From Arcobacter sp. (GTDB lineage Bacteria; Campylobacterota; Campylobacteria; Campylobacterales; Arcobacteraceae), in assembly GCA_030635995.1 (NCBI GenBank), contig DAOVXU010000001.1:1-41744 (forward strand): DNA of 41,744 bases, in the 5' to 3' direction. Shown here piece after piece: positions 6,273 through 32,981 of the stretch. Under the pieces are notes generated by a model. That model had not been told where the DNA came from, ran no database searches, and saw only the letters and a program-made list of their open reading frames with translations. The first letter of the stretch is position 1, and each line of letters begins with the position of its first letter. The translations under genes were made by a program, and so were the position numbers.

Positions 6273-6424
6273 ATTTACCTCCAATAAATCTATCTATTCT
6301 TAATGATACTAAAATATATATAAAAAGCTTATCTAAAATAAAAAGATTAACTAGTACCTTTAAATAATTTAGCTATTCTTAATTAAGTCTAAACTAGATA
6401 TAATCACGTATATAAGGAAAATAA

Positions 6425-17058: not shown

Positions 17059-18584
17059 TATTTTTTCTCCCCTATTGTATTTACTTTTATAATTGTTTCT
17101 TGAGCTCTAGAAGTAACTGCTCTTTCAGTCATAACTTGAACAAGTTGTTTAACACTCGCATCAACTGGCTCTAAAATTGGTTTAGGATGTACCCCTAAAT
17201 AAACTACTAGAAACACTAATGGAAGAAGTGCTGAATACTCTTTACCATTTAAATCTTTTAAATCTAAATTTGATTTATTTGTAACTGCACCAAAAAATGT
17301 TCTTTTATATAAAACTAACATATAAATTGCACCTAAAATAATTGTTAAACCAGCAATTGCAGTTAAAACTGGAGAAACTGCAAAGTAACCTAATAGTGAC
17401 AAAAATTCACCAACAAAACCAATTGTTAAAGGTAACCCAACTGATGCCATAAGCATAATACCAAATATAAGAGCATACATTGGCATAACTCTAGCTAATC
17501 CACCAAATTCGCTCATCATTTTTGTATGCTTTCTATCATAAATAACACCAACTAACATAAATAGTGCTCCTGATACTACACCATGAGATATCATTAAAAA
17601 TAAACTCCCACCAATACCTTCAACATTTAATGCAAAAATACCAAGTATAATAACACCCATATGAGATACTGAACTATAAGCAATTACTTGTTTTATATCC
17701 TCTTGTGCATAAGCTACCATTGCTGTATATATAATTGCAATTACAGCTAATACACCCATTGGTATCATAAAAGCAACCGAAGCATCTGGAAATAATGGTA
17801 AAGAAAATCTTATAAATCCATATGTTCCCATTTTAAGTAAAATTGCAGCAAGTATAACCGAACCAATAGTAGGTGCTTGTCCATGCGCATAAGGTAACCA
17901 TGTATGAAATGGAACCATAGGTACTTTAATAGCAAATCCTAAGAAAAATGCAACAAATAACCAAAGTTGAGTATTTAATGATAATGGTAACATATACCAA
18001 TCCATTAAATTAAAACTCCATGTTCCTGTTGTTTGTTGATATATAAATGCTAAATATAACATACCAACAAGCATAATTAATGAACCTGTAAATGTATATA
18101 AAAAGAATTTAACCGAAGCATAAATTCTTCTAGGACCTCCCCAAGCACCAATGATATATAACATAGGTACAAGAGAAAATTCCCAAAATACATAGAATAC
18201 AATAGCATCAAGAGCAACAAATACACCAACCATAGCCATCTCTAAAAATAATACAGTGATAATAAGATTTTTTAAATTTCTAGTTTCAGTTAAACCTATA
18301 AGAGAGATCATTGTAATAAATGTAGTCATTATTATTAAAAATAATGATATACCATCAATTCCTAAATTATAAGCAATCCCATACTGTGTAACAAGAGGTA
18401 TATATTCAGTAAACTGCATACCACCATTTGCTGTTTCAAAGTTATACCACAATACACATGATATAAAAAATTCTATAGCTGTAACAACTATACCGTATAC
18501 TCTAATAGCATCTTTCTCTACAAGCAATCCAATTATTGCTGCAAATACTGGAAAAAATATTAAAATAGATAAAATATGTTCCAT
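17058..18584 (-). CDS. nuoM: NADH:quinone oxidoreductase subunit M
   Basis: Antiporter-like subunit, with VPFHTWLPYAHGQAPT, IAYSSVSHMG and WEFSLVPMY. Confidence 0.93.
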   Translation of the reverse strand: MEHILSILIFFPVFAAIIGLLVEKDAIRVYGIVVTAIEFFISCVLWYNFETANGGMQFTEYIPLVTQYGIAYNLGIDGISLFLIIMTTFITMISLIGLTETRNLKNLIITVLFLEMAMVGVFVALDAIVFYVFWEFSLVPMLYIIGAWGGPRRIYASVKFFLYTFTGSLIMLVGMLYLAFIYQQTTGTWSFNLMDWYMLPLSLNTQLWLFVAFFLGFAIKVPMVPFHTWLPYAHGQAPTIGSVILAAILLKMGTYGFIRFSLPLFPDASVAFMIPMGVLAVIAIIYTAMVAYAQEDIKQVIAYSSVSHMGVIILGIFALNVEGIGGSLFLMISHGVVSGALFMLVGVIYDRKHTKMMSEFGGLARVMPMYALIFGIMLMASVGLPLTIGFVGEFLSLLGYFAVSPVLTAIAGLTIILGAIYMLVLYKRTFFGAVTNKSNLDLKDLNGKEYSALLPLVFLVVYLGVHPKPILEPVDASVKQLVQVMTERAVTSRAQETIIKVNTIGEKK

Positions 18585-18595
18585 TCTTTTCTCCC

Positions 18596-20533
18596 TTACT
18601 TAATTGAACCAAAAATTAATACAAGTATAAGTAATACAACTACACCACCTGCCATTAATTTTAAAGCTTTTGACAAGTTAGATGTTTGTACAACTCTTGC
18701 CTCTTGACCACCTGAACGAATACCACTTGCAATACTATCTACAATAGTATCAATGATTTTCATATCTATCTCTTTCCAACTAAATCTTGATAAAGCAAGA
18801 TAAGGTTTATTTATCATAGCTTCAATCATATGTGGAAAATAATATTGATTTGCTAATAATTTAAAACAAAATCTATCTCTTAATTTATCACCAAAATATT
18901 TTCCATCTTTTTGAAATTTAAAGTATGCAAATCCCATACCCGCTAATGATATAGAAATTGTAACAACCATCAACATAAGATTTGTGCTATCACTTACATG
19001 AGGATGAAATGCTGGTAATAATTGTGTAGCAAATTCAAAAAATGAATGTTCCCACCAACCTGCAACAACAGCAAGTATAGCTAAGGGTACCATTGAAGCA
19101 ATTACATAACCATATGCTTCATGAGGATGATAACCTAAACCTAACTCTTGATGAGTTTCTTTTCCAAAAAATACATACATTATAAGTCTAAATGAATAGA
19201 ATGCTGTTAATCCAGCTGTAATATATAATATACCCCATAATATATATGCATGTTCACCAAATGCTGAAGCAAGAATCAATTCTTTAGAATAGAATCCAGC
19301 CATCATTGGGAAACCTGCAAGTGCAGCTGAAGCAATAATCATAATCCAACCTGTATATGGCATATGTTTAAGTAATCCACCCATTTTTTTAATATTTATC
19401 TCATTATTCATAGCATGCATTACATTACCAGCACCTAAGAATAATACTGATTTAAAGAAAGCATGTGTTGCAAGGTGAAATAGTGCAATCCAATATGCTC
19501 CAACTCCAGCAGCAACAAACATATAACCAAGTTGTGACAATGTTGAATAAGCAATAATCTTTTTCATATTAGTAGCTACTAATGCTTGTGATGCTGCAAA
19601 TATTGCAACAAAAGCACCTATACAAGCTATTACATAACCAACTTCAGGAACTACAGTAAATATTTCATTTGCTCTAATTACTAAATATACTCCTGCAGTT
19701 ACCATAGTTGCAGCATGAATTAGTGCTGAAACTGGAGTAGGACCTTCCATCGCATTTGCAAGCCAAGTATTAAATGGAAACTGAGCTGATTTACCCATAG
19801 CTCCAATAAATAAGAATGCTGCAATAGCAACAACTAGACCATGACTCAATGTTCCAATCTCTGCAAATACAACATCATATTGTAAAGAACCTAAATTCCA
19901 ATATATTAAGAAAATACCAATTAACATACCAAGATCTGCAACTCTATTCATAATAAATGCTTCATTTGCAGCATATGAAGGTGAAATTGAAGAATACGGT
20001 GATAATGTAGAAAAAGGTGATTTTTCAATATCATCACTTGCAGGTACATCAGCTTTATGATACCAAAAACCAATTAGAAGCCAAGAACAAAGTCCAACCC
20101 CTTCCCAACCAATAAATAGACCAGCAAAGTTATCACTCATAACTAAGATCATCATAGAAAATACAAATGCACTTAAATATGAGAAAAATCTATTAAATGA
20201 TCTATCATGATCCATATATCCATTTGAATGGATATGAACCATAGCAGATACCATTGTCACAACAATCATCATCGATACACTAACTTGATCAACAACAATT
20301 CCAAATGGAACATTTACATTTCCTATAACTATCCAATCTTTTAAGCTAAAATGGATAATCTCACCTGTAGTTACTATATGATAAGCTAAATTAATAGATG
20401 CTATCAATGAAACTAAAATTAACGCTGATGTAACAATCCCTGTAAGTTGCACTTTCTTACTATTACCAAATAGTCCAGCAAATAATGATCCAACAAGTGG
20501 AGCAAATAATGCGATTAATGCATAATTTTCCAT
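18596..20533 (-). CDS. nuoL: NADH:quinone oxidoreductase subunit L
   Basis: GWEGVGLCSWLLIGFW, GKSAQFPFNTWLANAMEGPTPVSALIHAATMVTAGVYL, IAYSTLSQLGYMF. A C-terminal extension is consistent with the lateral helix. Confidence 0.93.
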   Translation of the reverse strand: MENYALIALFAPLVGSLFAGLFGNSKKVQLTGIVTSALILVSLIASINLAYHIVTTGEIIHFSLKDWIVIGNVNVPFGIVVDQVSVSMMIVVTMVSAMVHIHSNGYMDHDRSFNRFFSYLSAFVFSMMILVMSDNFAGLFIGWEGVGLCSWLLIGFWYHKADVPASDDIEKSPFSTLSPYSSISPSYAANEAFIMNRVADLGMLIGIFLIYWNLGSLQYDVVFAEIGTLSHGLVVAIAAFLFIGAMGKSAQFPFNTWLANAMEGPTPVSALIHAATMVTAGVYLVIRANEIFTVVPEVGYVIACIGAFVAIFAASQALVATNMKKIIAYSTLSQLGYMFVAAGVGAYWIALFHLATHAFFKSVLFLGAGNVMHAMNNEINIKKMGGLLKHMPYTGWIMIIASAALAGFPMMAGFYSKELILASAFGEHAYILWGILYITAGLTAFYSFRLIMYVFFGKETHQELGLGYHPHEAYGYVIASMVPLAILAVVAGWWEHSFFEFATQLLPAFHPHVSDSTNLMLMVVTISISLAGMGFAYFKFQKDGKYFGDKLRDRFCFKLLANQYYFPHMIEAMINKPYLALSRFSWKEIDMKIIDTIVDSIASGIRSGGQEARVVQTSNLSKALKLMAGGVVVLLILVLIFGSIK

Positions 20534-20535
20534 TT

Positions 20536-20841
20536 CTATCCCCCCATCTTTTGTAATGAATCTAGGTTTAAAGTATTTTTTCTTTTAAACCATAATATTA
20601 ATAATCCAAGTCCAACGGCAACTTCACTTGCAGCGATAGCTACAATAAAGAATGCAAACATTTGACCTGTTAAATCACCATGAAATTTTGATATTGCAGC
20701 AAAACCAATATTCACAGCATTTAACATTATTTCAGTTGCAAAAAATAACATAAGTAAATTTTTTCTTCTCATTGCACCTAATAATCCAATAGAAAATAAT
20801 ATTGTACTTAATATTAAATAATCATTTAGTGTTATTTCCAT
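20536..20841 (-). CDS. nuoK: NADH:quinone oxidoreductase subunit K
   Basis: 101 aa with 3 TM helices. Conserved membrane Glu residues in FFATEIMLNAVN and AASEVAVGLGL. Confidence 0.92.
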   Translation of the reverse strand: MEITLNDYLILSTILFSIGLLGAMRRKNLLMLFFATEIMLNAVNIGFAAISKFHGDLTGQMFAFFIVAIAASEVAVGLGLLILWFKRKNTLNLDSLQKMGG

Positions 20842-21431
20842 TACACATCCTTTTTATGTTCAAAATCGCTATGATGATGATCATTTTCTAAAATTTCATC
20901 CATACTCATATCCATTTTTTTACCAGCAAGTATAATACCACCTATCATAGCTACAAGTAACATAACTGCTGCTACTTCAAATGGAATTAGATATTTAGTA
21001 AATAATACAACACCAACATCTTGTATATTACCATCAATAGTTCCATACAAATTAGCTGCTATACCAACAGGATATTCAGGAGTAATATTTGCACCAATTA
21101 GTGGAGCAACAAATATTATAACTACCATTAAAGCTACTGCTCCAGAAAGTACAAATGTTAATCTTGGATTTGCAACAGATTCTTCAACATCACTAATAGA
21201 GTCAAAAAACATCATTCCAAATGCATAAAGTGCCATAACAGCACCTGTATATACAATAATTTGTACAACTCCTAGAAAATCTGCTTCTAAAATAAAAAAG
21301 AATGCAGATATAAAAATCATACCAGCAGCTAATGAACTTAACGCATATAATGCATTTTTAGTCATCACTGTTATGGTAAACATTGCAATTGTTAAAATTG
21401 CAAATAAATAAAAGGCTACTACTTCAAACAT
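20841..21431 (-). CDS. nuoJ: NADH:quinone oxidoreductase subunit J
   Basis: Position between nuoI and nuoK. GVVQIIVYTGAVMALYAFGMMF is typical of NuoJ. Has a hydrophilic His-rich tail (NDHHHSDFEHKKDV). Confidence 0.88.
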   Translation of the reverse strand: MFEVVAFYLFAILTIAMFTITVMTKNALYALSSLAAGMIFISAFFFILEADFLGVVQIIVYTGAVMALYAFGMMFFDSISDVEESVANPRLTFVLSGAVALMVVIIFVAPLIGANITPEYPVGIAANLYGTIDGNIQDVGVVLFTKYLIPFEVAAVMLLVAMIGGIILAGKKMDMSMDEILENDHHHSDFEHKKDV

Positions 21432-21440
21432 TATATATCC

Positions 21441-22064
21441 TTAATACGCAAGCGGTGTTTTTTTAATTTTTTTATCAGCATCTGGGCTAATAGCACCAAA
21501 TCCGTCAAACTCAATTTGTTGTTTAATATTATCAAATGGTGTAAGTAGATCATCTTTAAGTACAAAATGTGCTCTTTGCTCACTTGCATTTTCATATCTA
21601 TCACCATGTACAATAGCAAGCTCTGGACAAACTTCTGCACAATAACCACAAAAAATACATCTACCTAAATTAATTGTATATTCTACAACTTCTTTTCTAG
21701 ATTTTTCATCAATTCGTGTATCCATTTTTATACAATTTGCTATACAAATCTTTTCACAAAGACCACAACCAATACATCTGTTAGTTCCACTTTCAAGTAA
21801 ACCTAAAAGTTTATGTATTGCTCTATATCTAGGCGAAATTGGCAATCTTTCCATTGGATATTGAACTGTATGCATCTCATTATTAAATAATGCACCTTTC
21901 ATTATCTTAAATACAATACCAAGACCTTGAAATAGCTCTACACTAAATGTTCTTCTTGTGGCTTTCTTAAATGCTTCCCAACCAGTTGCTGGATATTCTT
22001 CAATATCCTGCATAACATACTCTTGGCTTCCTACATTTCTATTTTTTAAATCATTAAAATTCAT
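21441..22064 (-). CDS. nuoI: NADH:quinone oxidoreductase subunit I (2x[4Fe-4S])
   Basis: Two ferredoxin motifs, CIGCGLCEKICIANC and CIFCGYCAEVCPELA. Has an N-terminal extension. Confidence 0.93.
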   Translation of the reverse strand: MNFNDLKNRNVGSQEYVMQDIEEYPATGWEAFKKATRRTFSVELFQGLGIVFKIMKGALFNNEMHTVQYPMERLPISPRYRAIHKLLGLLESGTNRCIGCGLCEKICIANCIKMDTRIDEKSRKEVVEYTINLGRCIFCGYCAEVCPELAIVHGDRYENASEQRAHFVLKDDLLTPFDNIKQQIEFDGFGAISPDADKKIKKTPLAY

Positions 22065-22073
22065 ATTCTTTCC

Positions 22074-23036
22074 TTATACCATCATCACTAAACCAGTAAC
22101 TAAAATATTTAGTAACGCTAATGGCATTAATATTTTCCAACATAACCACATTAATTGATCTGGTCTAATATGAGGCCACGATGCTCTTGTCCATAAAAAT
22201 AAAAATATTAAAAACATAACTTTTATTATAATTGCAATTGCACCAGGAATAAACCACATATCATTAAATCCACCTAAAAATACTAAAGCAGTTAAAAATG
22301 AAACTGTAAAAAGATTAGCATACTCACCAATAAAGAACATCCCCCATCTCATACCAGAATATTCTGTTGCATAACCAGAAACAATCTCTGCTTCATGCTC
22401 AAGAAGATCAAATGGTGTTCTATTTGTTTCAGCATAACCTGCAATTAAAAATAGACCAAATGCTAATGGTTGTGACCAAATTAACCAGTTTGAAATTCCA
22501 CCAGCTTGATAATTATTTATATCAATTAAACTTAAACTTCCAACCATCATTAAAGGAGCTAATACAGATAAACCTGTAACAACCTCATATGATAATAATT
22601 GAATTGCTGTTCTAGCACCTCCAAGTAAACCCCATTTATTTGCTTGAGACATACCACCTAACAATGGACCATAAAGTCCAGTTGCCATAGCCCCAAGTAC
22701 AAATAATAATCCAACATTAATATCAGATATAATTACACCAGTGATAAATGGTACAGCACTCATAGCTATAAAAGCAGTAGCTGCTGTAATAATTGGAGCA
22801 AACATAAAGATTGGTCTATTTGCATGTTGAGGAATAAAATCTTCTTTTGTAAATAGTTTTGCTCCATCACAAAGAATTTGTATCACACCAAACGGACCTA
22901 CATGTGTAGGACCTAATCTTCTTTGCATAAAAGCAAGAATCTTTCTCTCTATATAAGTAGTAAACCCTGCTAAAGCTGAAAATACTGAAAGTATTACAAC
23001 AACTTTAACAATCGTCATTATTATGTCATTATCCAT
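22074..23036 (-). CDS. nuoH: NADH:quinone oxidoreductase subunit H
   Basis: ERKILAFMQRRLGPTHVGPFG and AETNRTPFDLLEHEAEIVSGYATEYSGMRW. Confidence 0.94.
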   Translation of the reverse strand: MDNDIIMTIVKVVVILSVFSALAGFTTYIERKILAFMQRRLGPTHVGPFGVIQILCDGAKLFTKEDFIPQHANRPIFMFAPIITAATAFIAMSAVPFITGVIISDINVGLLFVLGAMATGLYGPLLGGMSQANKWGLLGGARTAIQLLSYEVVTGLSVLAPLMMVGSLSLIDINNYQAGGISNWLIWSQPLAFGLFLIAGYAETNRTPFDLLEHEAEIVSGYATEYSGMRWGMFFIGEYANLFTVSFLTALVFLGGFNDMWFIPGAIAIIIKVMFLIFLFLWTRASWPHIRPDQLMWLCWKILMPLALLNILVTGLVMMV

Positions 23037-23038
23037 TT

Positions 23039-25483
23039 TTACACCTTTTTAATATTTGCATTGATATATCTATATCCAGCAAATAGTTTTTTAGTTTCAC
23101 AATTTTTCTCAAATGTTGGAACATATGCAATATCTCCATCAAGTTGATTATCTATAACTATATTTAAATCTACATCACCATTTTGTGTAGTAATATTTAC
23201 AGTATCATTTATATCTAATCCTAAATTTTCTAACATTTTAGAAGAAAGATATAATGCTGTTATATCTTTTGTAAGATTTTTTGATTTTGCTGTAAATTCA
23301 TTAAATTGGTTTATAGGATTTGCATTGTATATAATTGTACCCTCAAGAGTTGCATTGTCAATTTGTTTAACAACATCACTCCAAGGTAGATCGAATACTT
23401 TTAAATCATACCCTCTTGTCTCAACCATACTATTAGTAAAATAATTATCTAAATCATCAAAAGCAATTTTTTCAAAGATATTTGATGTATAATCAATTGT
23501 ATTTTCTTTTTTACAATCTAATATCTCATTAGCAATATCATTTAATGTATAACCAAAATATGGTAAAGCTGCATTTGTAGGTACAACTTTTTTATCAATA
23601 TTAGTAAAAGTACCCTCTTGCTGATTTAGTGAAGGCATATCAAGATCTCCATCTCCCAATGCACTAATTTCATAATCTGCTTTAACATTATATCCAACTG
23701 TATTACCTACAATCTGATCAGATAAATCACAAATTTGACTTGCACCTAAAGTATTTGTATTTGATGGAATTACAACAACTTTAAAATCAGTATATTTTTC
23801 AATTAATCCAGCTATTTTTGCTAAATTTTCACTATTTGGATGTGAATATAAATCTTCACCTAAAACTAAACTAAAAGTATCTTTTTTAAGAAGCATTGCC
23901 GCTATAATTTCTAGTAAAGTTTCATCATGACCAATAATATCTAGCAATTTTGTATATGTATACTCAACCTCTTTAGATACTTTTTTAGGTACCATTTTAG
24001 TAACTTCTTTTGTTCCACCTGTCTCTTCATCAGTAACAGTCTCAACTACTTTTTCTTTAATCATTTCAGATACAGTTTTAACTCTAGTTTCTCTAAAACT
24101 TTCAATATACGAAGCTACATCTACAGGTAAATCTTTTCCAAACTGATCAAGTATAAAAAACAATACAGCTTCTTCAGCTAAAGGTGTATGGAAAATTGTT
24201 TCTATTGTTTTGCTTTTTTTACCAAATCCTTCAATAGTAGTATCATTTAATGGATGAAAATATAATCCTGCACCCTTATTTATACTAATTGAATTATTAA
24301 ATGCAAATCTTACAGCTGGTGCATCTGATTTAAAATAAGAACCAACAGAGATTACAAAATTACTATTATGTACATCTTTTAGCGTTCCATTATATAAACT
24401 CTTACCGGTAATTGATGAAAAACTATTTAAGAACTTTTTATAATTTAAGGCATCACTATTTACAAGATTAAAACCAATTTTTTCTTTTAATTGTTGTAAA
24501 ATATATGCCTCTTCATTAGTAATAAAACTATTAAATAAAACTGTATCAGCTGATTTTAATTTCTCAATTGTATTTTTAAATTCAGCTTCATCTTTATTTT
24601 CTACTTTATTTGAATAATCAAATCCAAATCTAGCAGCTCCACTTAAAGATGTATAATGGGAATCATTAGTAACTCTATATATTTTCTTAACTTGATTTTT
24701 ATCAATTGATTCATTTTTAACTTCATAATATAAAAGTGAACAATCAGAAGAGTATGAATTTGATGCTGGAATCTTTTCTAACTCCCAAGCATTTGATTTA
24801 TATTTAAAATCTGTACTTGCTAATGCTCCCACAGGACAAACGGAGATACACTCACCACAATCTATACAATTATCTTCATTAAAACCTATAAGATTTTTAT
24901 TTAGTTTATTCCACATAGCATAAGCATCTTTTGGCATATTCTCTTTGTACTGTTTATCTAAGGCATCTGCACCTCTTTTAACAGTAGAAAGAGCAGCAGA
25001 ACCAATCATATCTTTACATACAGTTACACATTTTTCACAAACTATACAAAGTCCTGGGTCATAACTCATCACTCCCCAAACTGATGTTGGTCTATCAACA
25101 TCTCTTACTGCATAATCTTGCTTATCAACACCCATATATAAAGTATAATTTTGAAGTTCACACTCTCCACTTTGATCACATACACCACATTGTAATGGAT
25201 GATTTACATCATAAACTTCCATTATTGCTTTTCTCTCTTTAGCAATATTTTCAGTTGTTGTTGTTATTGTCATTCCATCTTTAACTTTAGCATTACAAGA
25301 ATATACTTGCTTACCATCTGCTTCAACCAAACACAATCTACATGCTAAAGTTGGTGAACATCTAGTAAGATAACAAATAGCTGGGACAAATATATCATTA
25401 GCACGAGCTACATTTAATATATATTCACCCTCAACAGCTTTGCACTCCTTACCGTCAATGTTTACAGTAATTAATTCACTCAT
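23039..25483 (-). CDS. nuoG: NuoG-type Fe-S subunit, downstream paralogue (N7-type Cys motif lost)
   Basis: 2Fe-2S CYLTRCSPTLACRLC...SC. N5-type HPLQCGVCDQSGEC. CIVCEKCVTVC plus CIDCGECISVCPVGAL. Molybdopterin-oxidoreductase-like C-terminal part. At the N7 position it reads NSYSSDCS (nt 24737-24760). Its start overlaps the upstream paralogue's stop (ATGA). Confidence 0.85.
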   Translation of the reverse strand: MSELITVNIDGKECKAVEGEYILNVARANDIFVPAICYLTRCSPTLACRLCLVEADGKQVYSCNAKVKDGMTITTTTENIAKERKAIMEVYDVNHPLQCGVCDQSGECELQNYTLYMGVDKQDYAVRDVDRPTSVWGVMSYDPGLCIVCEKCVTVCKDMIGSAALSTVKRGADALDKQYKENMPKDAYAMWNKLNKNLIGFNEDNCIDCGECISVCPVGALASTDFKYKSNAWELEKIPASNSYSSDCSLLYYEVKNESIDKNQVKKIYRVTNDSHYTSLSGAARFGFDYSNKVENKDEAEFKNTIEKLKSADTVLFNSFITNEEAYILQQLKEKIGFNLVNSDALNYKKFLNSFSSITGKSLYNGTLKDVHNSNFVISVGSYFKSDAPAVRFAFNNSISINKGAGLYFHPLNDTTIEGFGKKSKTIETIFHTPLAEEAVLFFILDQFGKDLPVDVASYIESFRETRVKTVSEMIKEKVVETVTDEETGGTKEVTKMVPKKVSKEVEYTYTKLLDIIGHDETLLEIIAAMLLKKDTFSLVLGEDLYSHPNSENLAKIAGLIEKYTDFKVVVIPSNTNTLGASQICDLSDQIVGNTVGYNVKADYEISALGDGDLDMPSLNQQEGTFTNIDKKVVPTNAALPYFGYTLNDIANEILDCKKENTIDYTSNIFEKIAFDDLDNYFTNSMVETRGYDLKVFDLPWSDVVKQIDNATLEGTIIYNANPINQFNEFTAKSKNLTKDITALYLSSKMLENLGLDINDTVNITTQNGDVDLNIVIDNQLDGDIAYVPTFEKNCETKKLFAGYRYINANIKKV

Positions 25484-27759
25484 TTTGTATCAACCTTTTT
25501 AATTTTTACTTGTTTATATCTATAACTCAAGGGTATCGAATCACTACTTAATCCATTGTCAAATGTTGGATATAATGCAATTGTACCCTTAATCGTTGTA
25601 TCAATTTTAAACATTTTAGTAGTAATATTCTCTTTATAAATAATTTCTACCATATCGCCATCATTTATTTTAGCCGCCATCGCAAAAGAGCTACTACCTC
25701 TTAAATGTGAATCAGATTGCAACAATAGTGACTTAGCTGTAGCTGTATTAAACTGATGTAATGGTTCACATCTATAAACAACTGAACCATTATATGATTT
25801 AAGATCATCAACCTCTTCTATATCAATAGGTAATATTTGAATATTCTTACTAGTTAAAGAATAACCTCTTAAATCAGTACCATATTTATCGTAACCATTT
25901 CCTAATATATCAAATTCAATTGACTTATATTCATTTTCATTATCTAATAATGGTGTATAATCTATAGTATATTTTCTTTTTTGATCTAAAATCTCATTTG
26001 CTAAATCATTTAAACAAAATCCATCAAAATTTAAAGCAGAATTTGTATTAACGACTTTCATATCTAAACTTGTAAATGTACCCTCTTGCTGATTTAATGC
26101 TGGAACATTAAAATCACCATCACCACTATTTGATATAGTAAAATTACCAAGTTCATTATAACCTACAATATTACCTTTAACATCCCCATCTAAATCACAT
26201 AATAAACTAACACCAAGTGTATTTGTTTGAGAAGGGATTAACATAATATTAAAATCTGTATATTTATCAATCAACCCTACTAATTTAGCAATATTTATAG
26301 CTCTTGGATGAGCATATAGATCTGTACCAATTATTATAGTTTTATTTTTTCTTCTTATTAATTTTGTTTGAATAAGCTCAAATTCCTCTTCACCTACACT
26401 AGATTCACCACTTAAATAACCAATATCAAGTTCATCAAAATATTCTTCAAATTCTTTAGGAATATCTTCTATTAAATATGATGCTAACATTGCCAGAATA
26501 GCCTCTTCACTACCAACTTCATATTTCACAAATTGTGTATATTTATTTGATAATGCGATATCATCAATTGGGTGCATATAAATAAATTGTGCATTTTGTT
26601 TTTTAGTTGCTATATTTACATTATATTTTACACCTGGATTATCTCTACTTATTCTAGTACCAATCATAATAATTGCATCACTTTGAGATACAGTGTCGTT
26701 AGAAGCAGTATATAAAGACTTCCCAGTTACACTGCTATAATTTCTTAAAAAGTTTTGATAATTTTTAGCATCTTCATTAACTAGATTTAAACCAAGTTTA
26801 TTCTTAAGATTTTGTAATATTAAAGCCTCTTCATTTGTTATAAATGAATTAAACCTAATCGTATTTGCATTTTTAAGTGCATCAACTGCCTTTACAAAAT
26901 CTTCACTAGAATTACTAACTTCTTTATTTTCAAATTCGAATCCAAATCTACCAGCACCACATAAAGTTGAAAATTCAAAATCATTTTTAACTCTTGTAAT
27001 TTTAGATTCATATGGATTATCAATTCCAGCATTCTTAACATCATAAACTAATGCACACCCACTTGAACAATGAGCACAAGATGCTGGTACTTGATCTGCT
27101 TCCCAAGCATTTGAAGTATATTTATAAGCATTTGATACTAAAGCTCCAACTGGACATACAGAGATACAATCTCCACACTGTTCACATCTTGAATATTTAA
27201 TATCAATTGTAGATTTATAGCCACCTGGTTTCACATAAAGTGCAGCAGTACCTATAACTTCATTACAAGTATGTACACATTTTTCACACATAATACATAA
27301 ATGTGGATCATATCCTAAGATTCCCCATTTTTTTTGTTTTCTTGGTTGATCTTTTACTGCAAATTCTTGACTTTCAACTTTAAATTCTAAATTCTTATTT
27401 TGAAGATCACATTCACCACTTTTATCACAAACACCACACTGTAATGGATGATTAACATCATAAAGTTTCATAATATTTACTCTATGTCGTTCTATCTCAT
27501 CATTATTTGTTGTAATAACAGCATTATTTACTGCTTTTTCCTGACATGATAAAATTAAACCATCAACACCTTCAACATTAACTGCACACATTCTACATGA
27601 TGCTATTGGAGAAACTTTTGTAAGGTAACACATAGTAGGGATATAGATATCATTTCTTCTTGCTATATCTAAAATTGTTTCACCATAGACACCATCACAT
27701 GATTTACCATCAATATTTATTGTTATTGGTTTATTCCTATGTTCTGATTTTGTACTCAT
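25480..27759 (-). CDS. NuoG-type Fe-S subunit, upstream paralogue (retains N7-type CxxCxxxC motif)
   Basis: CYLTKVSPIASCRMC...SC, HPLQCGVCDKSGEC, CIMCEKCVHTC, CEQCGDCISVCPVGAL, and CAHCSSGC (nt 27055-27078) plus the downstream LCGAGRF. Clearly paralogous to the next gene (shared NSFITNEEA.ILQ.LK, DKYTDF, LNQQEGTFT, LNDLANEILD). Start set at the ATG at 27759 (MSTKSEHRNKPITINIDGK aligns with MSELITVNIDGK of the paralogue). That ATG forms an ATGA overlap with the preceding stop. The track's longer start at 27795 is less likely. Confidence 0.8.
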   Translation of the reverse strand: MSTKSEHRNKPITINIDGKSCDGVYGETILDIARRNDIYIPTMCYLTKVSPIASCRMCAVNVEGVDGLILSCQEKAVNNAVITTNNDEIERHRVNIMKLYDVNHPLQCGVCDKSGECDLQNKNLEFKVESQEFAVKDQPRKQKKWGILGYDPHLCIMCEKCVHTCNEVIGTAALYVKPGGYKSTIDIKYSRCEQCGDCISVCPVGALVSNAYKYTSNAWEADQVPASCAHCSSGCALVYDVKNAGIDNPYESKITRVKNDFEFSTLCGAGRFGFEFENKEVSNSSEDFVKAVDALKNANTIRFNSFITNEEALILQNLKNKLGLNLVNEDAKNYQNFLRNYSSVTGKSLYTASNDTVSQSDAIIMIGTRISRDNPGVKYNVNIATKKQNAQFIYMHPIDDIALSNKYTQFVKYEVGSEEAILAMLASYLIEDIPKEFEEYFDELDIGYLSGESSVGEEEFELIQTKLIRRKNKTIIIGTDLYAHPRAINIAKLVGLIDKYTDFNIMLIPSQTNTLGVSLLCDLDGDVKGNIVGYNELGNFTISNSGDGDFNVPALNQQEGTFTSLDMKVVNTNSALNFDGFCLNDLANEILDQKRKYTIDYTPLLDNENEYKSIEFDILGNGYDKYGTDLRGYSLTSKNIQILPIDIEEVDDLKSYNGSVVYRCEPLHQFNTATAKSLLLQSDSHLRGSSSFAMAAKINDGDMVEIIYKENITTKMFKIDTTIKGTIALYPTFDNGLSSDSIPLSYRYKQVKIKKVDTK

Positions 27760-29771
27760 ACAGCCACCATCCCAAGGTAATAACATCTCATACATCTCTC
27801 AGCTTCTGCTTGCGCTTCTTCAGCTGTAAAACCTAGATTTACCTCTTTATTATTGTCTTTTCTCACTTCAGTTGCTAGTTTTTCACTCACTTCTCGCAGG
27901 ATGCCTGGCATCCAACCTGTAATTTTTTCTTTTTTATTATAAACTTTAAGTTTATTCATATGATCTTCCATAATCTCTTCATCTGTAAGTGTTATTTTAC
28001 CATCATATATATATCTACTAATTACAGAAGCTGCTCGTCTTGCTTGTCCAACAGCATTTACAATAGTCATAGGACCATATTCACAATCTCCTGCTGCAAA
28101 AAGCCCATCTCTATTTGTCATATAATCTTTACCATTAGTTTGTAATGTACCCCATGAAGTCATCTCTAATTCCCATTCTTTTGGTAATATTTGAAGATCA
28201 CAAGCTTGTGAAACTGCTGGAATTACAAAATCACACTCTATTTCAAAGTCTGCACCCTCTATTTTTACTAATTGAGCTCTACCACCATTTGGATCTGGAA
28301 CTAATTCATATTTATTTACAATTAAGGATGTTAATTGTCCTTCATCATCAAATAACTCTTGAATAGCACTATGAAAAATAAACTCAACACCCTCTTCTAC
28401 TGCTTCAGTATATTCTTCTAAAGTTGTATTTCTAATAATTGTTTTTTCATCTCTTCTATAAAGCATAACAACTCTTTTTGCACCTTCACGAATAGAACAT
28501 CTAACAACATCCATAGAGGTAAATCCACCACCAACACAAACTACAGTTTTACCTTTTAATTCATTTGAAGCAGGAGATCCAATTTTAAATTTATGCCATA
28601 AGTTAACCTTATCAAGCATCTCTATTGCACCCCAGTAACCTTTCATCTCAGTGTTCTCATTTCCACATCTAATAGCTTTACTAAGTCTTGCTCCAAATCC
28701 TAGTAAAGTAGCATCAAATTCCTCTTCAATCTCTTTAAGTCTAGTAGCTGATACTCTATGATTTGTAATAACTTCAACACACTCTAAATCTGTTACAAGT
28801 TTAATATCTTCATTATATTTATCAAAAGGCATTCTATATTCTGGAACACCCACTGTAACTTCACCACCAAGTACTGGTAATTCTTCAAAAATAGTTACCC
28901 TAATACCTTGAATTGCTAAATAATATGCAGCTGTTAAACCTGCTGGTCCAGCTCCTATAATTGCAACTCTTTTACCATCATTTTTAGATTTTGCAGGTTC
29001 AATAGGATGAATCCAAGGAAGATTATGATCAGTTTCATAATCTGCTCCAATTCTTTTTAATTCCATAATTGAAATTGGCTCATCCAAATTTGTTCGTCTA
29101 CAAGCATCTTCACAAGGATGAGGACAAACTCTTCCACAAACATGAGCTAATGGCATATGTTCTCTTGTAGCACTTAATGTTGCTTCAAAATCTAAATCTC
29201 TAACACCTTCAATATATGCAGGAATATCAATATGCGTAGGACACATATCACTACATGGAGCTGTTACATTTGCTATATATTTACTATCATCAACATCATA
29301 CCAAGGAGATTTTTTTTGTTCTTTAATTAAGTCAAAAAAATCTTTTTCAAAATACTGTATCATTTGTAAAATTGGAACAGGAACTGTCTTACCAATTTCA
29401 CATTTACTTGTACTTGTCATAGTGGAACTTATCTCTTTTAAATGATCTAAATCAGAAAATTCACCCTCACCACGAGCAATTTTATCAAGCATGTCATATA
29501 GTATTCTTCCACCCCATCTTCCAGGAGCACATCGACCACAAGCTTCAGAATATTCTTGGTATTGTCTTGCATAATTTAATGCAAGTTTAACAATATCTAC
29601 ATCTTTGGTAAAAAGAGCAAATCCATCCCAACCAACAAAAGCTTTAGTTTGTGTATCTGCATCATAATTTACTGGTAATTTAGCTGATACTTCTTTCCAA
29701 TCATCAATATTATCAATATCTCGATTGTCAATTATATCATCTTGCCAGCTTGAAAAATATACTTTACTCAC
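27756..29771 (-). CDS. chimeric flavoprotein in the NuoF slot: NuoF C-terminal Fe-S segment fused to a GltD/SfrB-type FAD-NAD(P)H oxidoreductase
   Basis: Residues ~44-150 (AFVGWDGFALFTKDVDIV...YSEACGRCAPGRWGG...SKCEIGK) resemble the NuoF N3-cluster region. CGRCAPG lies at nt 29520-29540. Next come CPTHIDIPAYI, CGRVCPHPCEDAC, VAIIGAGPAGLTAAYYLA (GAGPAG at nt 28938-28955), VVCVGGGFTSMD...MLYRRD and LFAAGDC. The protein ends in RCMRC. GTG start has AGGA 7 nt upstream. No FMN-domain motifs seen. Confidence 0.75.
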   Translation of the reverse strand: MSKVYFSSWQDDIIDNRDIDNIDDWKEVSAKLPVNYDADTQTKAFVGWDGFALFTKDVDIVKLALNYARQYQEYSEACGRCAPGRWGGRILYDMLDKIARGEGEFSDLDHLKEISSTMTSTSKCEIGKTVPVPILQMIQYFEKDFFDLIKEQKKSPWYDVDDSKYIANVTAPCSDMCPTHIDIPAYIEGVRDLDFEATLSATREHMPLAHVCGRVCPHPCEDACRRTNLDEPISIMELKRIGADYETDHNLPWIHPIEPAKSKNDGKRVAIIGAGPAGLTAAYYLAIQGIRVTIFEELPVLGGEVTVGVPEYRMPFDKYNEDIKLVTDLECVEVITNHRVSATRLKEIEEEFDATLLGFGARLSKAIRCGNENTEMKGYWGAIEMLDKVNLWHKFKIGSPASNELKGKTVVCVGGGFTSMDVVRCSIREGAKRVVMLYRRDEKTIIRNTTLEEYTEAVEEGVEFIFHSAIQELFDDEGQLTSLIVNKYELVPDPNGGRAQLVKIEGADFEIECDFVIPAVSQACDLQILPKEWELEMTSWGTLQTNGKDYMTNRDGLFAAGDCEYGPMTIVNAVGQARRAASVISRYIYDGKITLTDEEIMEDHMNKLKVYNKKEKITGWMPGILREVSEKLATEVRKDNNKEVNLGFTAEEAQAEAERCMRCYYLGMVAV

Positions 29772-29786
29772 TTTAAAATCCTATAA

Positions 29787-30050
29787 TTATTCTGCTGAAC
29801 TTTCATCAACTTCTACTACTGGTACTGTTTTTTTAATAACTACAGTCCAATCTACTTCATTAAATTTTAAAGAATTCATTAAAGTCCAATTATTTTCTTT
29901 TACAATATCAGCAACATTTTGTACTGGAGAAAAATCTCCAATTTCAAAAAGAAAAATTCCATTTTCATCTTCTACAATTTCACTATTCATTAACTCTACT
30001 AATCTATCAGTAAAATTATCATTTAATTCTCTTAAATCATATCTTTTCAT
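29787..30050 (-). CDS. small acidic Cys-free protein in the NuoE slot (function unknown)
   Basis: 87-aa ORF with no cysteine, so it cannot be a 2Fe-2S NuoE. Its ATG overlaps the nuoD stop (TAATG), and the next gene starts 16 nt after its stop. Coding status is supported by operon fit only. Confidence 0.6.
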   Translation of the reverse strand: MKRYDLRELNDNFTDRLVELMNSEIVEDENGIFLFEIGDFSPVQNVADIVKENNWTLMNSLKFNEVDWTVVIKKTVPVVEVDESSAE

Positions 30051-31276
30051 TATCTATCTATCTCCCCAAATACTATATTTAGGTTACCAATAATTGTAAC
30101 AACATCAGCTAATTGATGACCAGGAAGTAAATCTTGTAATACACCTGTATGCCAAAAGCTCGGAGCTCTAAGTTTCATTCTATATGGATATGGTGAACCA
30201 TCACTTACAACAAAATAGCCTAACTCACCTTTTGGCGATTCAGTTGCTATATAAACTTCTCCTACTGGTGGTCTCATACCCTGAGTTACCAAAACAAAAT
30301 GTTGCATCAAAGAATAATTTTGAGTCATCATATCCTCTTTAGTAGAAGATATATATTCAGGTGAATGAGCCATAAGTTGAGTATCACTTTGCTCATACAT
30401 AGGGATAAGTTGTTTTAATATTCTCATCGATTGATGCATCTCCGCCATATGTAATTTATATCTAGCATATGAATCACCTTTATCAGATGTAGGAATATCA
30501 AAATCTAATTCTGGATAAAGTCCATATGGCATCTCTTTTCTTAAATCCCATTTAACACCAGAAGCTCTTAAAACTAAACCTGTACATCCCCAACTTCTTG
30601 CCATTTTAGAATCAATAACACCTACATTTTCAAGTCTCATTCTCCAAATTCTATTTTTTGTAAGAAGACCTTCATAGATACCTATTTGTTCCGTTAAGAT
30701 ACCCATGAATTTTTCCATTTGTGCTATCCAACCAACAGGTAAATCTAAAGGTACACCTCCAATTCTTACTGCACTATGAGTAAGTCTAGCTCCACAATAA
30801 TCTTCCATAAGATCCATTGCAAATTCTCTTTCTCTAAACGCATATAAAAATACAGACATAGCACCAACATCAAGTGCATGAGTAGCAAGCCAGAAAAGAT
30901 GTGAGATAAGTCTATTTATTTCAAGAAGCATTGTTCTTATCACTTCAGCTCGTCTAGGTGCTTCAACTCCAATAAGTTTTTCTATTGCTAAAGCATAACC
31001 ATAGTTATTTGAAGTTGCTGCAATATAATCTGTTCTATCAGTTGTAGGTAGAAATTCATTATACATCATATTCTCACCCATTTTTTCTATACCTCTATGA
31101 AGGTATCCAACATCTGGATGAGCTTTTACTACCTCTTCACCTTGAAGCTCTAAAATAAGTCTTAACTGACCATGAGCAGATGGATGTTGAGGACCAAAGT
31201 TAACAACCATAGTGTTGTCATCTCTATCAAATGTAATATTTTCAAAAAATGGTTTTAATCTATTGACTTGTTGCAT
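30050..31276 (-). CDS. nuoD: NADH:quinone oxidoreductase subunit D
   Basis: [31 protein letters not shown]-terminal [18 protein letters not shown]. Confidence 0.95.
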
Positions 31277-31278
31277 AA

Positions 31279-32100
31279 TTATCTTCTCTCTTCTAAATTT
31301 GTTGGTTCAATTTCATCAAATGGAGTTACAAGTTTTTTACCAAATAATTGTACTCCACCCTCTTCTTGATATCTTACAGGTGTATCTGGTTCTTTACCAT
31401 CTGTAATATCTGTACCAAATGGAACTTCATGACCAAGTCTTGAAAATCTTGTAGTATCATATCTATCAATAGCAGCTGCATCTCTTATCTCTGGACCAAT
31501 AACATCTCTTGCTTCTTTTCCAAATATTTTATCAACTTCATACCATTGTGCTGATTCATCACCATGCAATGGATAAGTTTTAAGTAAAGGATGACCTGTC
31601 CAATCATCTGGCATAAGAATTCTTTTTAACATAGGATGATTATTTGCAACTATTCCAAACATATCAAACATCTCTCTCTCAGACCAATTTGCCATTCTAA
31701 ATAATGGTTCAACTGATTCAATTGCTTGACCCTCTTTAATAAAAGTTTTGACTCTTAGTCTTTTTCTTTTTGATGTAGATAACATCTCATAAAAAACTTC
31801 AAACCCACCTCTAGTAGCAACATAATCAACTGCACTAAGTTCCATTAAAAAATCATATGCACAAATATCTCTTAAATGCTTAATAGCTTCAATATTATCT
31901 TGTGGTACAATATGTAAAACTAAATGATCTAATTCTATATATGCTTCACTTATTTCAACTTTATTTTTTAAACTTAAATAAGCATTACTTAAAGTCGAAT
32001 CACTATATACTGATTTTCTTTGTAATGTAGGTTTAACAAAAAATCTATCGCTATAATATGATTTTGCTTGTACATTATCTTTTGGTTTATAAGCTCTCAT
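31279..32100 (-). CDS. nuoC: NADH:quinone oxidoreductase subunit C
   Basis: [20 protein letters not shown] and [18 protein letters not shown]. Abuts nuoB and nuoD. Confidence 0.92.
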
Positions 32101-32610
32101 CTATATCAACCTTTTTGCTTTTTGAGCCAATCCAGCTGGCTGTCTTCTTATTTTTCTTTGTAACATCATCAACGCATATTGCAATGTCTCTGGTCTAGGA
32201 GCACATCCTGGAAGATAAATATCAACAGGTACTATTCTATCCACACCTTGAACTGTTGCATATGTATTAAACATACCACCAGTATTTGCACAACTACCCA
32301 TAGAGATTACCCATTTTGGATCTGGCATTTGGTCATATAATCTTCTCATAAACTCTGAATGTTTTTTTGTTAGAGTTCCTGCAACAATAATAACATCAGA
32401 TTGCCTAGGAGATGCTCTAAATATAGTACCAAATCTATCAAAATCAAATCTTGATGCACCTGAAGCCATCATCTCAATAGCACAACATGCTAATCCATAA
32501 GTCATTGGCCAAAGCGAATTACTTCGTCCAAAATTTACTATTTTATCTACTGTTGTAAGAGCAATAGGTGCCCCTCCATCTTGTAAATAGTTTACTTTAT
32601 GCTGTGCCAT
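32101..32610 (-). CDS. nuoB: NADH:quinone oxidoreductase subunit B (N2 cluster)
   Basis: [30 protein letters not shown]. Confidence 0.95.
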
Positions 32611-32981
32611 TCAAGCGCTCCTTTTTTCCATGCATATATAAATCCAATTGTTAATAAAATAATAAATGTTATCATTTCAATAAATCCAAACCATCCAAGA
32701 ACTTTAAAATCAACAGCCCAAGGAAACATAAATATAATCTCAACATCAAATAAAATAAATAATAATGCCATTAGATAAAATTGTACAGAGATAGTGTTAG
32801 GTTGCTTAGTAACCTCTGGTCCACACTCGTATAATGTACATTTTAATTTTTCTGTATCAAGTCTTGCTAGTTTTCTACTTACAAATCTCGATAACATAGT
32901 TGTTGCGGTAAATGCTCCAAATGTTACTATAAACATAACAAAAGCACCAAAATAAGGATGTGCAAAATCCATATGTTCCAT
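32592..32981 (-). CDS. nuoA: NADH:quinone oxidoreductase subunit A
   Basis: 3-TM protein with YECGPEV and [22 protein letters not shown] Shine-Dalgarno lies 5 nt upstream of the ATG. First gene of the operon. Confidence 0.9.

Follow-up and report, generated by a model that had tools for sequence, protein, structure and literature searches.

In the complex I of Sulfurimonas denitrificans, the subunit NuoF is replaced by Suden_1824, a homologue of the flavoprotein NfnB which keeps the Tyr-Arg-Arg (YRR) NADPH site, the Fe-S cysteines and the flavin adenine dinucleotide (FAD) residues. It is accompanied by two expressed copies of NuoG, of which the short one, Suden_1823, is without two segments relative to Suden_1822, and McNichol & Sievert, who report no alternative complex in this organism, proposed that the enzyme reduces NADP+ and ferredoxin in reverse electron transport (bioRxiv 10.1101/717884). 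Weerakoon & Olson 2008 are credited there with first noting a non-canonical NuoEF together with two NuoG in chemoautotrophic relatives (bioRxiv 10.1101/717884). The present analysis concerns a nuo operon with a similar layout in a 41,744-nucleotide (nt) stretch of DNA from Arcobacter sp. (contig DAOVXU010000001.1), whose whole length is referred to below as “the window”. Between nuoD and two nuoG genes this operon carries a gene for a protein of 87 amino acids (aa) in the place of nuoE, and a gene for a 671-aa fusion flavoprotein in the place of nuoF. The window is low-GC DNA (G+C ~25-33%), and its closest relatives are Arcobacteraceae; a metagenome scaffold and a contig of the metagenome-assembled genome GCA_023140115.1 have the identical sequence.

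For the complex I of Campylobacter jejuni, flavodoxin has been described as the electron donor (PMC4178425). The small Helicobacter pylori protein HP1264 has a TusA/SirA-like fold and is reported to bind flavin mononucleotide (FMN) on the evidence of nuclear magnetic resonance and fluorescence (Lee et al. 2013, summarized in PMC6269979). Arcobacter was counted by Moparthi & Hägerhäll 2011 as having the standard 14-subunit enzyme, and the genome paper on Arcobacter butzleri assumed an NADH:quinone oxidoreductase. Outside complex I, the SfrAB enzyme of Geobacter sulfurreducens is soluble and NADPH-dependent (PMC7483475). In NfnABC, the FAD of the NfnL-like domain stands at the end of the chain and only oxidizes NADPH; single electrons pass via a NuoG-like domain to a cluster in a NuoF-type four-helix bundle, and the FAD-proximal [4Fe-4S] cluster (A7) is ligated by Lys-170 of NfnA and three Cys (PMC11829005).

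A preliminary description of the window held that the operon is without a canonical NuoE and NuoF, that the two proteins in their positions form a new type of input module, and that this module differs from the “two unrelated proteins” of Campylobacter and Helicobacter. Its structural observations are borne out by the results given below. Its claim of novelty does not hold at the level of genomes and hypotheses, since the same NuoF replacement, NfnB homology, YRR triad and pair of NuoG copies had been published (bioRxiv 10.1101/717884), McNichol & Sievert having independently reached the same NADPH/NfnB hypothesis for Suden_1824. Nor is the type of module new, since it has been characterized in the soluble enzyme SfrAB (PMC7483475) and in the Stn/NfnABC structures (PMC11829005).

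The protein in the NuoF position

The domain order of the 671-aa protein is exactly the one predicted for it. Pfam detects NADH_4Fe-4S (PF10589) at residues 64-145 (3.6e-20), Fer4_20 at residues 170-249 (4.8e-24) and Pyr_redox_2 at residues 268-577 (3.3e-25), and finds no match to Complex1_51K (PF01512); domains of the GltD type are present and the FMN domain is not. The NCBIfam nuoF model TIGR01959 aligns over model positions 292-407 only, and its 57.7 bits fall far short of the cut-off of 558.65. The best sequence matches of residues 167-664 in the PDB are to the NfnL-like domain in the large subunits of NfnABC/StnABC (3e-78 to 2e-67), the structures matched being 9BOV (Caldicellulosiruptor saccharolyticus), 9N5U (Thermococcus sibiricus) and 8OH5 (StnABC of Sporomusa ovata), with 4ylf_B (2.6e-66) and 6s6s_G (5e-47) as further PDB matches of the protein. 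An AlphaFold2 (AF2) model with a mean predicted local distance difference test score (pLDDT) of 92.8 and a predicted template modelling score (pTM) of 0.91 gives the same ranking in Foldseek, where the NfnABC/StnABC large subunits come first (3e-43 to 2e-41), followed by NfnB, GltD and dihydropyrimidine dehydrogenase (DPD). On these profile, PDB and Foldseek comparisons, the protein in the NuoF position is best described as a fusion in which the C-terminal four-helix bundle of NuoF precedes a circularly permuted NfnL/GltD-like module with predicted sites for two [4Fe-4S] clusters, FAD and NADP(H), the flavoprotein without an FMN domain that the preliminary description had recognized.

The NuoF-derived tail aligns with HydB/NuoF chains such that ESCGKCvPCReG falls against EACGRCAPGRWG and SLCGLGKT against SKCEIGKT. 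At the site that corresponds to cluster N3, C78, C81 and C124 are present and the third Cys is replaced by Gly84, as had been proposed; the alignment and the codon (GGA) agree on this point, and the PF10589 domain itself is retained. The motif CGRCAPG is encoded at 29540-29520 on the minus strand. C78, C81 and C124 are invariant among 38 family members, and CGRC[AT]PGRWGG or a close variant (CxxCxxG) occurs in 57 of 59 fusion proteins, being unmatched in the other 2; these 59 proteins come from 55 loci with the operon layout of the window (“type A”, see below), from L004 and L005, and from the non-nuo pair L006/L007. Gly at the third N3 ligand position is shared with the non-nuo relatives P0123, P0125 and P0128, while others keep Cys, and it is therefore a variant of the family and not a change specific to nuo operons.

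The remainder of the protein has the components of the NfnB/GltD module in an altered order. In NfnB and GltD the first CxxC lies N-terminal to PCxxxCP, whereas in the 671-aa protein the CxxC is at the C-terminus and the Fer4_20 match begins only at profile position 29. Permutation was tested with a chimera in which residues 625-664 were placed before residues 170-245. The chimera aligns colinearly with residues 12-123 of Thermotoga maritima NfnB (E 6.6e-21), the aligned stretch being RKDNNKEVNLGFTAEEAQAEAERCMRCyTAPCSDMCP. The same segment follows the flavoprotein domain in 9bov_A (537-569) and 9n5u_A (562-594), and R659, C660, R662 and C663 are invariant in the 38 family members. The terminal segment ending in RCMRC is thus what forms, before circular permutation, the N-terminal helix and first CxxC of the two-[4Fe-4S] motif of NfnB/GltD. 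The preliminary description was right in placing this pair at the extreme C-terminus; it was mistaken in calling the pair “extra”, for it is the permuted first CxxC and is invariant in the whole beta-subunit family. An additional cluster site at RCMRC is accordingly rejected on the chimera alignment.

In the gap-free alignment to 9bov_A, K239 (in ELKR) falls on Lys-170 of C. saccharolyticus NfnA. The seven invariant Cys (173, 177, 216, 220, 224, 660 and 663) and K239 therefore account for two [4Fe-4S] clusters.

In the predicted nucleotide site, Y438-R439-R440 (nt 28452-28460) aligns with Y310-R311-R312 of T. maritima NfnB, a triad given as the site of the NADPH 2'-phosphate (bioRxiv 10.1101/717884). 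The NADPH-dependent GltD of Azospirillum brasilense has LYRRD at this position, and the triad is kept in each of the 59 fusion proteins. The most economical reading is therefore that the input module is NADP(H)-linked, as the preliminary description had suggested from the YRR motif. The loop of the NADP(H) domain at residues 409-416 (nt 28524-28547, minus strand) is glycine-rich and reads GGGFTSMD in the nuo-linked clade, whereas NfnB, GltD and the relatives outside nuo operons have GGGN(T/V)A(M/I)D there.

The protein in the NuoE position

The 87-aa protein matches the Pfam family PF16514, “NADH-UOR_E”, at 1.6e-33 (115.3 bits against a cut-off of 25), and aligns with H. pylori HP1264 (PDB 2LXR) over residues 1-74 with 45% identity (E 7e-18). 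It contains no Cys and matches no other Pfam family, so that the thioredoxin-like domain of NuoE with its four-Cys N1a site is absent from it. In a family alignment of 26 sequences from both operon types described below, the mean column identity is 68%, Trp68 is invariant and no conserved Cys occurs. Foldseek with a single-sequence model of low confidence (pLDDT 62) returned 2LXR as the sole match. A PDB sequence search likewise found no homologue besides 2LXR, and there is therefore no structure of a complex I of this type, termed “epsilon-type” below, in that database.

Since the protein belongs to the HP1264 family, the NuoE-slot protein is common to this operon and the operon of the Campylobacter/Helicobacter type: judged by these matches it is a member of a known family and a homologue of HP1264. 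The absence of Cys claimed in the preliminary description is correct, and the contrast drawn with the “two unrelated proteins” of those genera fails for this gene. The protein is probably best regarded as the conserved small subunit of the HP1264 type, with the TusA/SirA-like fold of that family, and as a structural partner that possibly binds FMN.

Operon layout and the two NuoG paralogues

The nuo operon comprises 14 genes on the minus strand, running from 32981 down to 15565 in the order nuoA, nuoB, nuoC, nuoD, 87-aa open reading frame (ORF), 671-aa ORF, NuoG-1, NuoG-2 and nuoH-nuoN (Table 1). The junctions are as first described: the nuoD stop and the ATG of the 87-aa gene share TAATG, and the 671-aa ORF, which follows the 87-aa gene after a gap of 15 nt, starts with GTG preceded by AGGA 7 nt upstream. 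Its TGA overlaps an in-frame ATG of NuoG-1 in ATGA at 27759-27756, and the junction of NuoG-1 and NuoG-2 is also ATGA. This spacing predicts that the genes are translationally coupled within nuoA-N. The start of NuoG-1 is ambiguous, because two more in-frame ATGs lie upstream of the one at 27759, at 27786 (the choice of the public gene call) and 27795; similarity to NuoG-2 starts only past the ATG at 27759.

On the coding strand between nuoD and NuoG-1 there is no ORF besides the two described, and Pfam finds neither a NuoE nor a NuoF FMN domain among the annotated genes of the whole window. The claim that this interval encodes neither the four-Cys pattern of NuoE nor the FMN/NADH-binding domain of NuoF is in agreement with these searches. 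A canonical NuoE or NuoF hidden in the two slots or elsewhere in the window is ruled out by the absence of PF01512 and NuoE-type matches. On the opposite strand, a 122-aa ORF with a TTG start (29725-30093, plus strand) runs antisense to the 87-aa gene and the beginning of the 671-aa gene; it is of low complexity and most likely spurious.

Table 1. Features of the nuo operon in the window, with positions on the forward strand and the evidence for each assignment
Feature	Position (nt)	Strand	Evidence
nuoA, nuoB, nuoC, nuoD	30050..32981	-	ORFs; Pfam Oxidored_q4, Oxidored_q6, Complex1_30kDa, Complex1_49kDa
87-aa NuoE-slot subunit, HP1264/PF16514 family (predicted)	29787..30050	-	Pfam, PDB 2LXR, family alignment
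671-aa NuoF-slot subunit (predicted)	27756..29771	-	Pfam, NCBIfam, PDB sequence search, AF2 model, Foldseek
NuoF-tail, residues 31-153: end of ubiquitin-like domain and four-helix bundle	29313..29681	-	HydB/NuoF alignments
NfnB/GltD-type Fe-S domain, residues 165-250: C173, C177, C216, C220, C224, K239	29022..29279	-	Fer4_20, 9bov_A alignment
FAD and NADP(H) Rossmann domains, residues 266-590: GAGPAGL; GGGFTSMD and Y438-R439-R440	28002..28976	-	Pyr_redox_2, NfnB/GltD alignment
C-terminal segment, residues 633-664, ending RCMRC	27780..27875	-	Chimera alignment, invariance
NuoG-1, short NuoG paralogue, 759-771 aa depending on start	25480..27759	-	Pfam; NCBIfam PRK08493
NuoG-2, long NuoG paralogue, 814 aa	23039..25483	-	NCBIfam PRK08493, best-hit assignment, tree
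nuoH, I, J, K, L, M, N	15565..23036	-	ORFs; Pfam NADHdh, Fer4, Oxidored_q3, Oxidored_q2, Proton_antipo_M

NuoG-1 and NuoG-2 are 40% identical, and NuoG-1 is without two segments found in NuoG-2. Both match PRK08493, the NCBIfam model of epsilon-type NuoG, NuoG-1 with 843 bits and NuoG-2 with 1096 bits over its full length. In NuoG-1 the Molybdopterin domain of Pfam is below threshold (16.7 bits against 24) and Molybdop_Fe4S4 is absent, and its identity to the alpha subunit encoded beside P0123, a relative outside nuo operons discussed below, is 31%. An origin of NuoG-1 as an imported SfrA/Fdh-like alpha subunit is not favoured, given 40% identity to NuoG-2 against this 31% and the PRK08493 match of both paralogues. 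NuoG-2 is the orthologue of the single NuoG of the “type B” operons introduced below, both by best-hit assignment and in the tree.

In a motif census, the motifs of clusters N1b, N5 and N4 and of an extra 4Fe-4S site were present in 50-52 of 52 NuoG-1 and in all 62 NuoG-2 sequences. The N7-like CxxCxxxC is distributed differently, occurring in 38/52 NuoG-1, in 10/42 NuoG-2 of type A and in 0/20 NuoG of type B. In the window, NuoG-1 has all of the N1b/N5/N4-type motifs and the N7-like one as well (PASCAHCSSGC, nt 27055-27078, minus strand), while NuoG-2 reads PASNSYSSDC and has lost the N7-like motif.

Two types of operon

The distribution of the layout was mapped with the 87-aa family in a scan of one genome per GTDB species. 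At least 518 genomes encode a relative, and the best 80 loci were examined; they are ranked by similarity to the 87-aa protein of the window, and the proportions are hence not an unbiased census. The PF16514 gene directly follows nuoD in all 80. The layout of the window, type A, recurs in 57 of them, each from a different species-level genome, and consists of the PF16514 gene, a fusion protein of 665-737 aa, NuoG-1 (~750-790 aa), NuoG-2 (~815-830 aa) and nuoH. These loci carry the labels of many Arcobacteraceae metagenome-assembled genomes (MAGs), including one labelled Arcobacter nitrofigilis, and of Sulfurovum, Nitratifractor and Candidatus Thiovulum, and their fusion proteins are 63-86% identical. 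A gene order shared by this many loci is therefore not due to chance.

A further 22 loci are of type B, in which the PF16514 gene is followed by a gene for a protein of ~224-300 aa, a single NuoG-2-like gene and nuoH; one locus is cut by the contig end. Type B is found in Halarcobacter, Malaciobacter canalis, Arcobacter iocasae, Candidatus Marinarcus, Helicobacter sp. 16-1353 and a Helicobacteraceae MAG. The occurrence of both types in Arcobacteraceae calls into question the count of 14 standard subunits for Arcobacter, A. butzleri not being among the loci.

The short protein in the NuoF position of type B has no Pfam family. It aligns with residues ~355-515 and the C-terminal ~100 residues of NuoG-1 at 31-55% identity, and it matches PRK08493 at 1e-13 to 1e-36. 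Over 241 shared columns its mean identity is 36% to NuoG-1 and 22% to NuoG-2. In neighbour-joining trees computed with capped distances, the short proteins fall within the NuoG-1 clade with a bootstrap value of 162/200 when the long branch L005 is left out and 32/200 when it is included, and those of Arcobacteraceae nest among Arcobacteraceae NuoG-1 in 136/200 replicates. These comparisons identify the type-B protein as a truncated NuoG-1 made up of the middle and C-terminal parts without the Fe-S domains. Because the short proteins nest inside the NuoG-1 clade, loss of the flavoprotein module is implied, and the simplest reading is that a type-A operon would have become type B by losing the flavoprotein gene together with the Fe-S half of nuoG-1. 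The short protein may belong to the same family as C. jejuni Cj1574c and H. pylori HP1265; profile and single-sequence searches bearing on this link returned only proteins of Arcobacter type, unnamed proteins and those of two named Helicobacter species.

Examples of the short type-B gene are found at L085:7303-8079, L068:7272-8069 and L017:7245-8147. The product from L017, an Arcobacteraceae MAG, is 55% identical to NuoG-1, which suggests a recent truncation. The Logan contig P0404 (1986 bp) encodes a 337-aa protein in which a PF16514 domain is joined by a linker of ~30 residues to a short NuoG-1-like protein; the fusion may be a weak hint of interaction, or an artefact of assembly or frameshift.

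Relatives outside nuo operons

A HMMER search of 1.84 billion representatives (E ≤ 0.001) found 16,313 relatives of the 671-aa protein. The nuo-linked clade makes up very few of the clusters formed at 50%, namely P0121 (67% identity) and P0122 (49%), both in nuo context. The next relatives, at 33-40% identity, are proteins of ~650 aa outside nuo operons which are colinear over the full length, and in full-length alignments to P0123-P0164 (28-40% identity) the Cys and RCxRC are invariant. P0123 has a Pfam architecture identical to that of the 671-aa protein, and its gene lies directly upstream of one for an 859-aa NuoG/Fdh-like alpha subunit with molybdopterin domains, an order of beta then alpha which matches that of the 671-aa protein and NuoG-1; the pair is of the SfrAB/NADP-formate dehydrogenase kind. 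The Joint Genome Institute (JGI) annotation of close homologues of the window protein is “formate dehydrogenase beta subunit”.

In P0142 (1034 aa), P0202 and P0201, a complete NuoF (Complex1_51K and NADH_4Fe-4S) is fused to the same permuted GltD-like module. The 671-aa protein looks like such a fusion minus the FMN domain, and the complete-NuoF fusions may be ancestral to the tail-only form or a collateral line of it.

A divergent nuo operon is present at L005. Its fusion protein, P0122 (962 aa, L005:6525-9413), is interrupted after the NuoF-tail, ahead of the Fe-S domain, by a low-complexity insertion of ~290 residues in which S, N, Q and K abound, and both of its NuoG paralogues (L005:9426-15605) exceed 1000 aa.

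Proposed function and alternatives

The explanation favoured here, to which a probability of roughly 0.55 is assigned, is that the operon encodes a reversible NADP(H):menaquinone complex I in which an FAD-containing input subunit of the SfrB/NfnL type is docked via the NuoF four-helix bundle, together with the HP1264-type subunit. The genes for the 87-aa and 671-aa proteins would then specify the part of an “epsilon-type” complex I at which electrons enter, the 671-aa protein being a beta subunit of the kind seen in SfrB and NADP-dependent formate dehydrogenase (NADP-FDH) that has retained the four-helix bundle in order to dock a NuoG-type subunit. NADPH would bind to the YRR Rossmann domain and transfer a hydride to FAD, from which single electrons would move to the [4Fe-4S] cluster held by three Cys and Lys239 and then to the four-Cys [4Fe-4S] cluster completed by C660/C663. 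From this second cluster they would pass, directly or via the three-Cys N3-like site, to the Fe-S wire of NuoG-1 and NuoG-2, and then through NuoI and NuoB to menaquinone. In heterotrophs the enzyme would oxidize NADPH, while autotrophs of the clade that use the reductive tricarboxylic acid (rTCA) cycle would make NADPH by reverse electron flow driven by the proton-motive force (pmf). The architecture, the conservation of the ligands, the permutation and the synteny are direct observations. That the module is attached to complex I, that its physiological partner is NADPH and that electrons take this path is inferred, the path by homology to the solved NfnABC/StnABC. The high conservation of the fusion protein with its cofactor ligands indicates strong selection on a redox function, and the retention of a cofactor-less remnant of NuoG-1 in 22 type-B operons speaks for NuoG-1 as an integral component of the complex.

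Several points weigh against this explanation. The N3-like site has only three Cys and may hold a [4Fe-4S] cluster, a [3Fe-4S] cluster or none. The clade-specific loop GGGFTSMD could alter the handling of the nucleotide. The absence of canonical nuoEF was established only within the window. Literature searches turned up no biochemical, proteomic or structural study of the complex-I-bound module, in accordance with the preliminary description, to whose author no biochemical characterization of it was known, and the PDB search with the 87-aa protein found no complex I structure from Campylobacterota. Lastly, the homologous C. jejuni enzyme uses flavodoxin and FMN binding has been reported in the 87-aa family, which makes it plausible that there is a second or alternative site for a donor.

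Such a site is central to the rather unlikely alternative of a branched, confurcating or bifurcating enzyme, in which the FAD subunit would handle NADP(H) and another site, either the second NuoG wire or an FMN subunit of the HP1264 type, would serve ferredoxin or flavodoxin, and which in reverse mode would reduce NADP+ and ferredoxin together according to the proposal of McNichol and Sievert, published for S. denitrificans (bioRxiv 10.1101/717884). The two NuoG-type Fe-S wires, whose motifs are kept in nearly all type-A loci, are consistent with branching, as are the bifurcating activity of the homologous flavoprotein NfnB, the use of flavodoxin by the sister enzyme of type B (PMC4178425) and the FMN binding reported for HP1264 (PMC6269979). 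The closest match of the module, however, is the NfnL-like domain of NfnABC/StnABC, whose FAD is terminal and does not bifurcate, the NfnA-type [2Fe-2S]/FAD partner which NfnB requires is absent, and no ferredoxin-binding site can be identified from the sequence. Flavodoxin or ferredoxin could also be the main donor, as in C. jejuni, with the GltD-like subunit as an auxiliary and dispensable branch such as a redox-balancing NADPH valve. The type-B operons of close relatives, including other Arcobacteraceae, are otherwise complete without this subunit, the nesting of their short proteins implies that the module was lost, and the 87-aa subunit is equally conserved in both operon types. A dispensable role is nevertheless doubtful for a fusion protein that is 63-86% identical across type-A loci, with its cofactor ligands kept in 57 of these loci, and whose gene is in the NuoF position and translationally coupled.

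It is quite improbable that the 671-aa protein and NuoG-1 constitute a separate, soluble NADPH:acceptor oxidoreductase like SfrAB, co-transcribed with complex I and not bound to it. The nearest non-nuo relatives are indeed encoded by stand-alone beta/alpha gene pairs in the same order, and SfrAB is soluble and NADPH-dependent (PMC7483475), but NuoG-1 is a paralogue of NuoG-2 (40%, against 31% to the Fdh-like alpha subunit) which matches PRK08493 and has no significant molybdopterin domains. In addition, the gene pair lies in mid-operon with overlapping stop and start codons, the remnant of NuoG-1 persists in type-B operons, and in one relative this remnant is fused to a PF16514 domain. A more far-reaching proposal would combine the two NuoG wires and the FAD/NADPH and FMN subunits in a branched peripheral arm that exchanges electrons simultaneously with NADP(H) and flavodoxin/ferredoxin, with pmf-driven co-reduction of both in reverse; the flavodoxin-dependent 12-subunit enzyme of Campylobacter and Helicobacter would be its degenerate descendant, whose NuoF-slot subunit would be a cofactor-less NuoG-1 remnant. 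Taken as a whole, this proposal is speculative and unlikely.

If the NADP(H)-linked complex I favoured here exists, its connection to NADP(H) via an FAD module would represent a bioenergetic solution of its own and a natural case of input-module swapping in complex I. Type-A operons occur in loci labelled as sulfur-oxidizing, CO2-fixing Campylobacterota (Sulfurovum, Nitratifractor, Thiovulum) and in many Arcobacteraceae, and the question bears on the supply of NADPH and low-potential reductant to the rTCA cycle in such organisms. The route from type A to the operon of the Campylobacter/Helicobacter type, in which the flavoprotein gene and the Fe-S half of NuoG-1 disappear, would, if it holds for the pathogens, provide a testable idea of the identity of their NuoF-slot subunit. 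The layout is real and widespread but has already been described from genomes, and the analysis is of use as a guide to experiments, not as a discovery. Three points seem to be without precedent in the literature searched and help to focus such experiments: the circular permutation, the Lys-ligated cluster and the origin of the type-B NuoF-slot protein in NuoG-1.

Other features of the window

Elsewhere in the window, a 642-aa ankyrin-repeat ORF (38340-40268, minus strand; Pfam Ank_2/Ank_4) is unusual for a free-living bacterium. A response-regulator/GGDEF diguanylate cyclase (2119-3378) and a 485-aa class III adenylate/guanylate cyclase (4827-6284) are encoded on the minus strand ~1.4 kb apart, with an argininosuccinate lyase gene between them.

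Comparison with known systems

The complex I of S. denitrificans shares with the window an NfnB-like flavoprotein in the NuoF position with YRR and Fe-S Cys, and a short and a long NuoG. The window has the defining operon features of the two-NuoG epsilon type, and was set beside Suden_1824 by its published description only. It differs in its host, an uncultured Arcobacteraceae MAG, and the S. denitrificans preprint makes no mention of the NuoF-tail, the circular permutation, the Lys ligand and the link to the short NuoF-slot protein. The complex I of C. jejuni and H. pylori (Cj1575c/Cj1574c; HP1264/HP1265) has the PF16514 protein in the NuoE position in common with the window, together with a NuoG of the NuoG-2 type, for which the window NuoG-2 scores 1096 bits with PRK08493. 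The type-B operons of Arcobacteraceae and two Helicobacter species, unlike the window, have a truncated NuoG-1 in the NuoF position and no FAD/NADPH module.

The complex I variant NUO-2 of Nitrospina gracilis and Kuenenia stuttgartiensis resembles the window in having a NuoF without an FMN site, and was proposed to function in reverse electron transport for CO2 fixation (PMC3578206). Its NuoF2, however, keeps the NADH-binding domain and adds ferredoxin-like clusters, and NUO-2 has neither a GltD-like FAD module nor a PF16514 subunit.

Among soluble enzymes, the class of SfrB and “formate dehydrogenase (NADP+) beta” is like the 671-aa protein in that its members, relatives of 650-685 aa, are colinear with it over the full length and end in RCxRC; these relatives are only 33-40% identical to the 671-aa protein, and the class was assigned by architecture and annotation. 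The class forms soluble two-subunit enzymes whose alpha subunit has molybdopterin domains, whereas the partner in the window is a NuoG paralogue within a nuo operon. NfnB, GltD, SudA and the N-terminal module of DPD share the Fer4_20, FAD and NADPH domains and the YRR triad with the 671-aa protein, and differ from it in the position of the first CxxC, N-terminal to PCxxxCP, and in having no NuoF-tail. The closest structural counterparts are NfnABC and StnABC of the Bfu-family (9BOV, 9N5U, 8OH5), which have the permuted CxxC, the Lys-ligated proximal cluster and a terminal NADPH/FAD site whose Fe-S chain leads into a NuoG-like domain and a NuoF four-helix bundle. In these enzymes a 2Fe-2S domain on the N-terminal side and an Fdh/NuoG-like domain on the C-terminal side belong to the same chain as the module, which works with full NuoF-like (FMN) and NuoE-like subunits that carry out the bifurcation; no genes for such partner subunits occur in the operon or in the window. 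Compared with them, the 671-aa protein has dispensed with the FMN subunit and kept the four-helix bundle alone, fused before the module.

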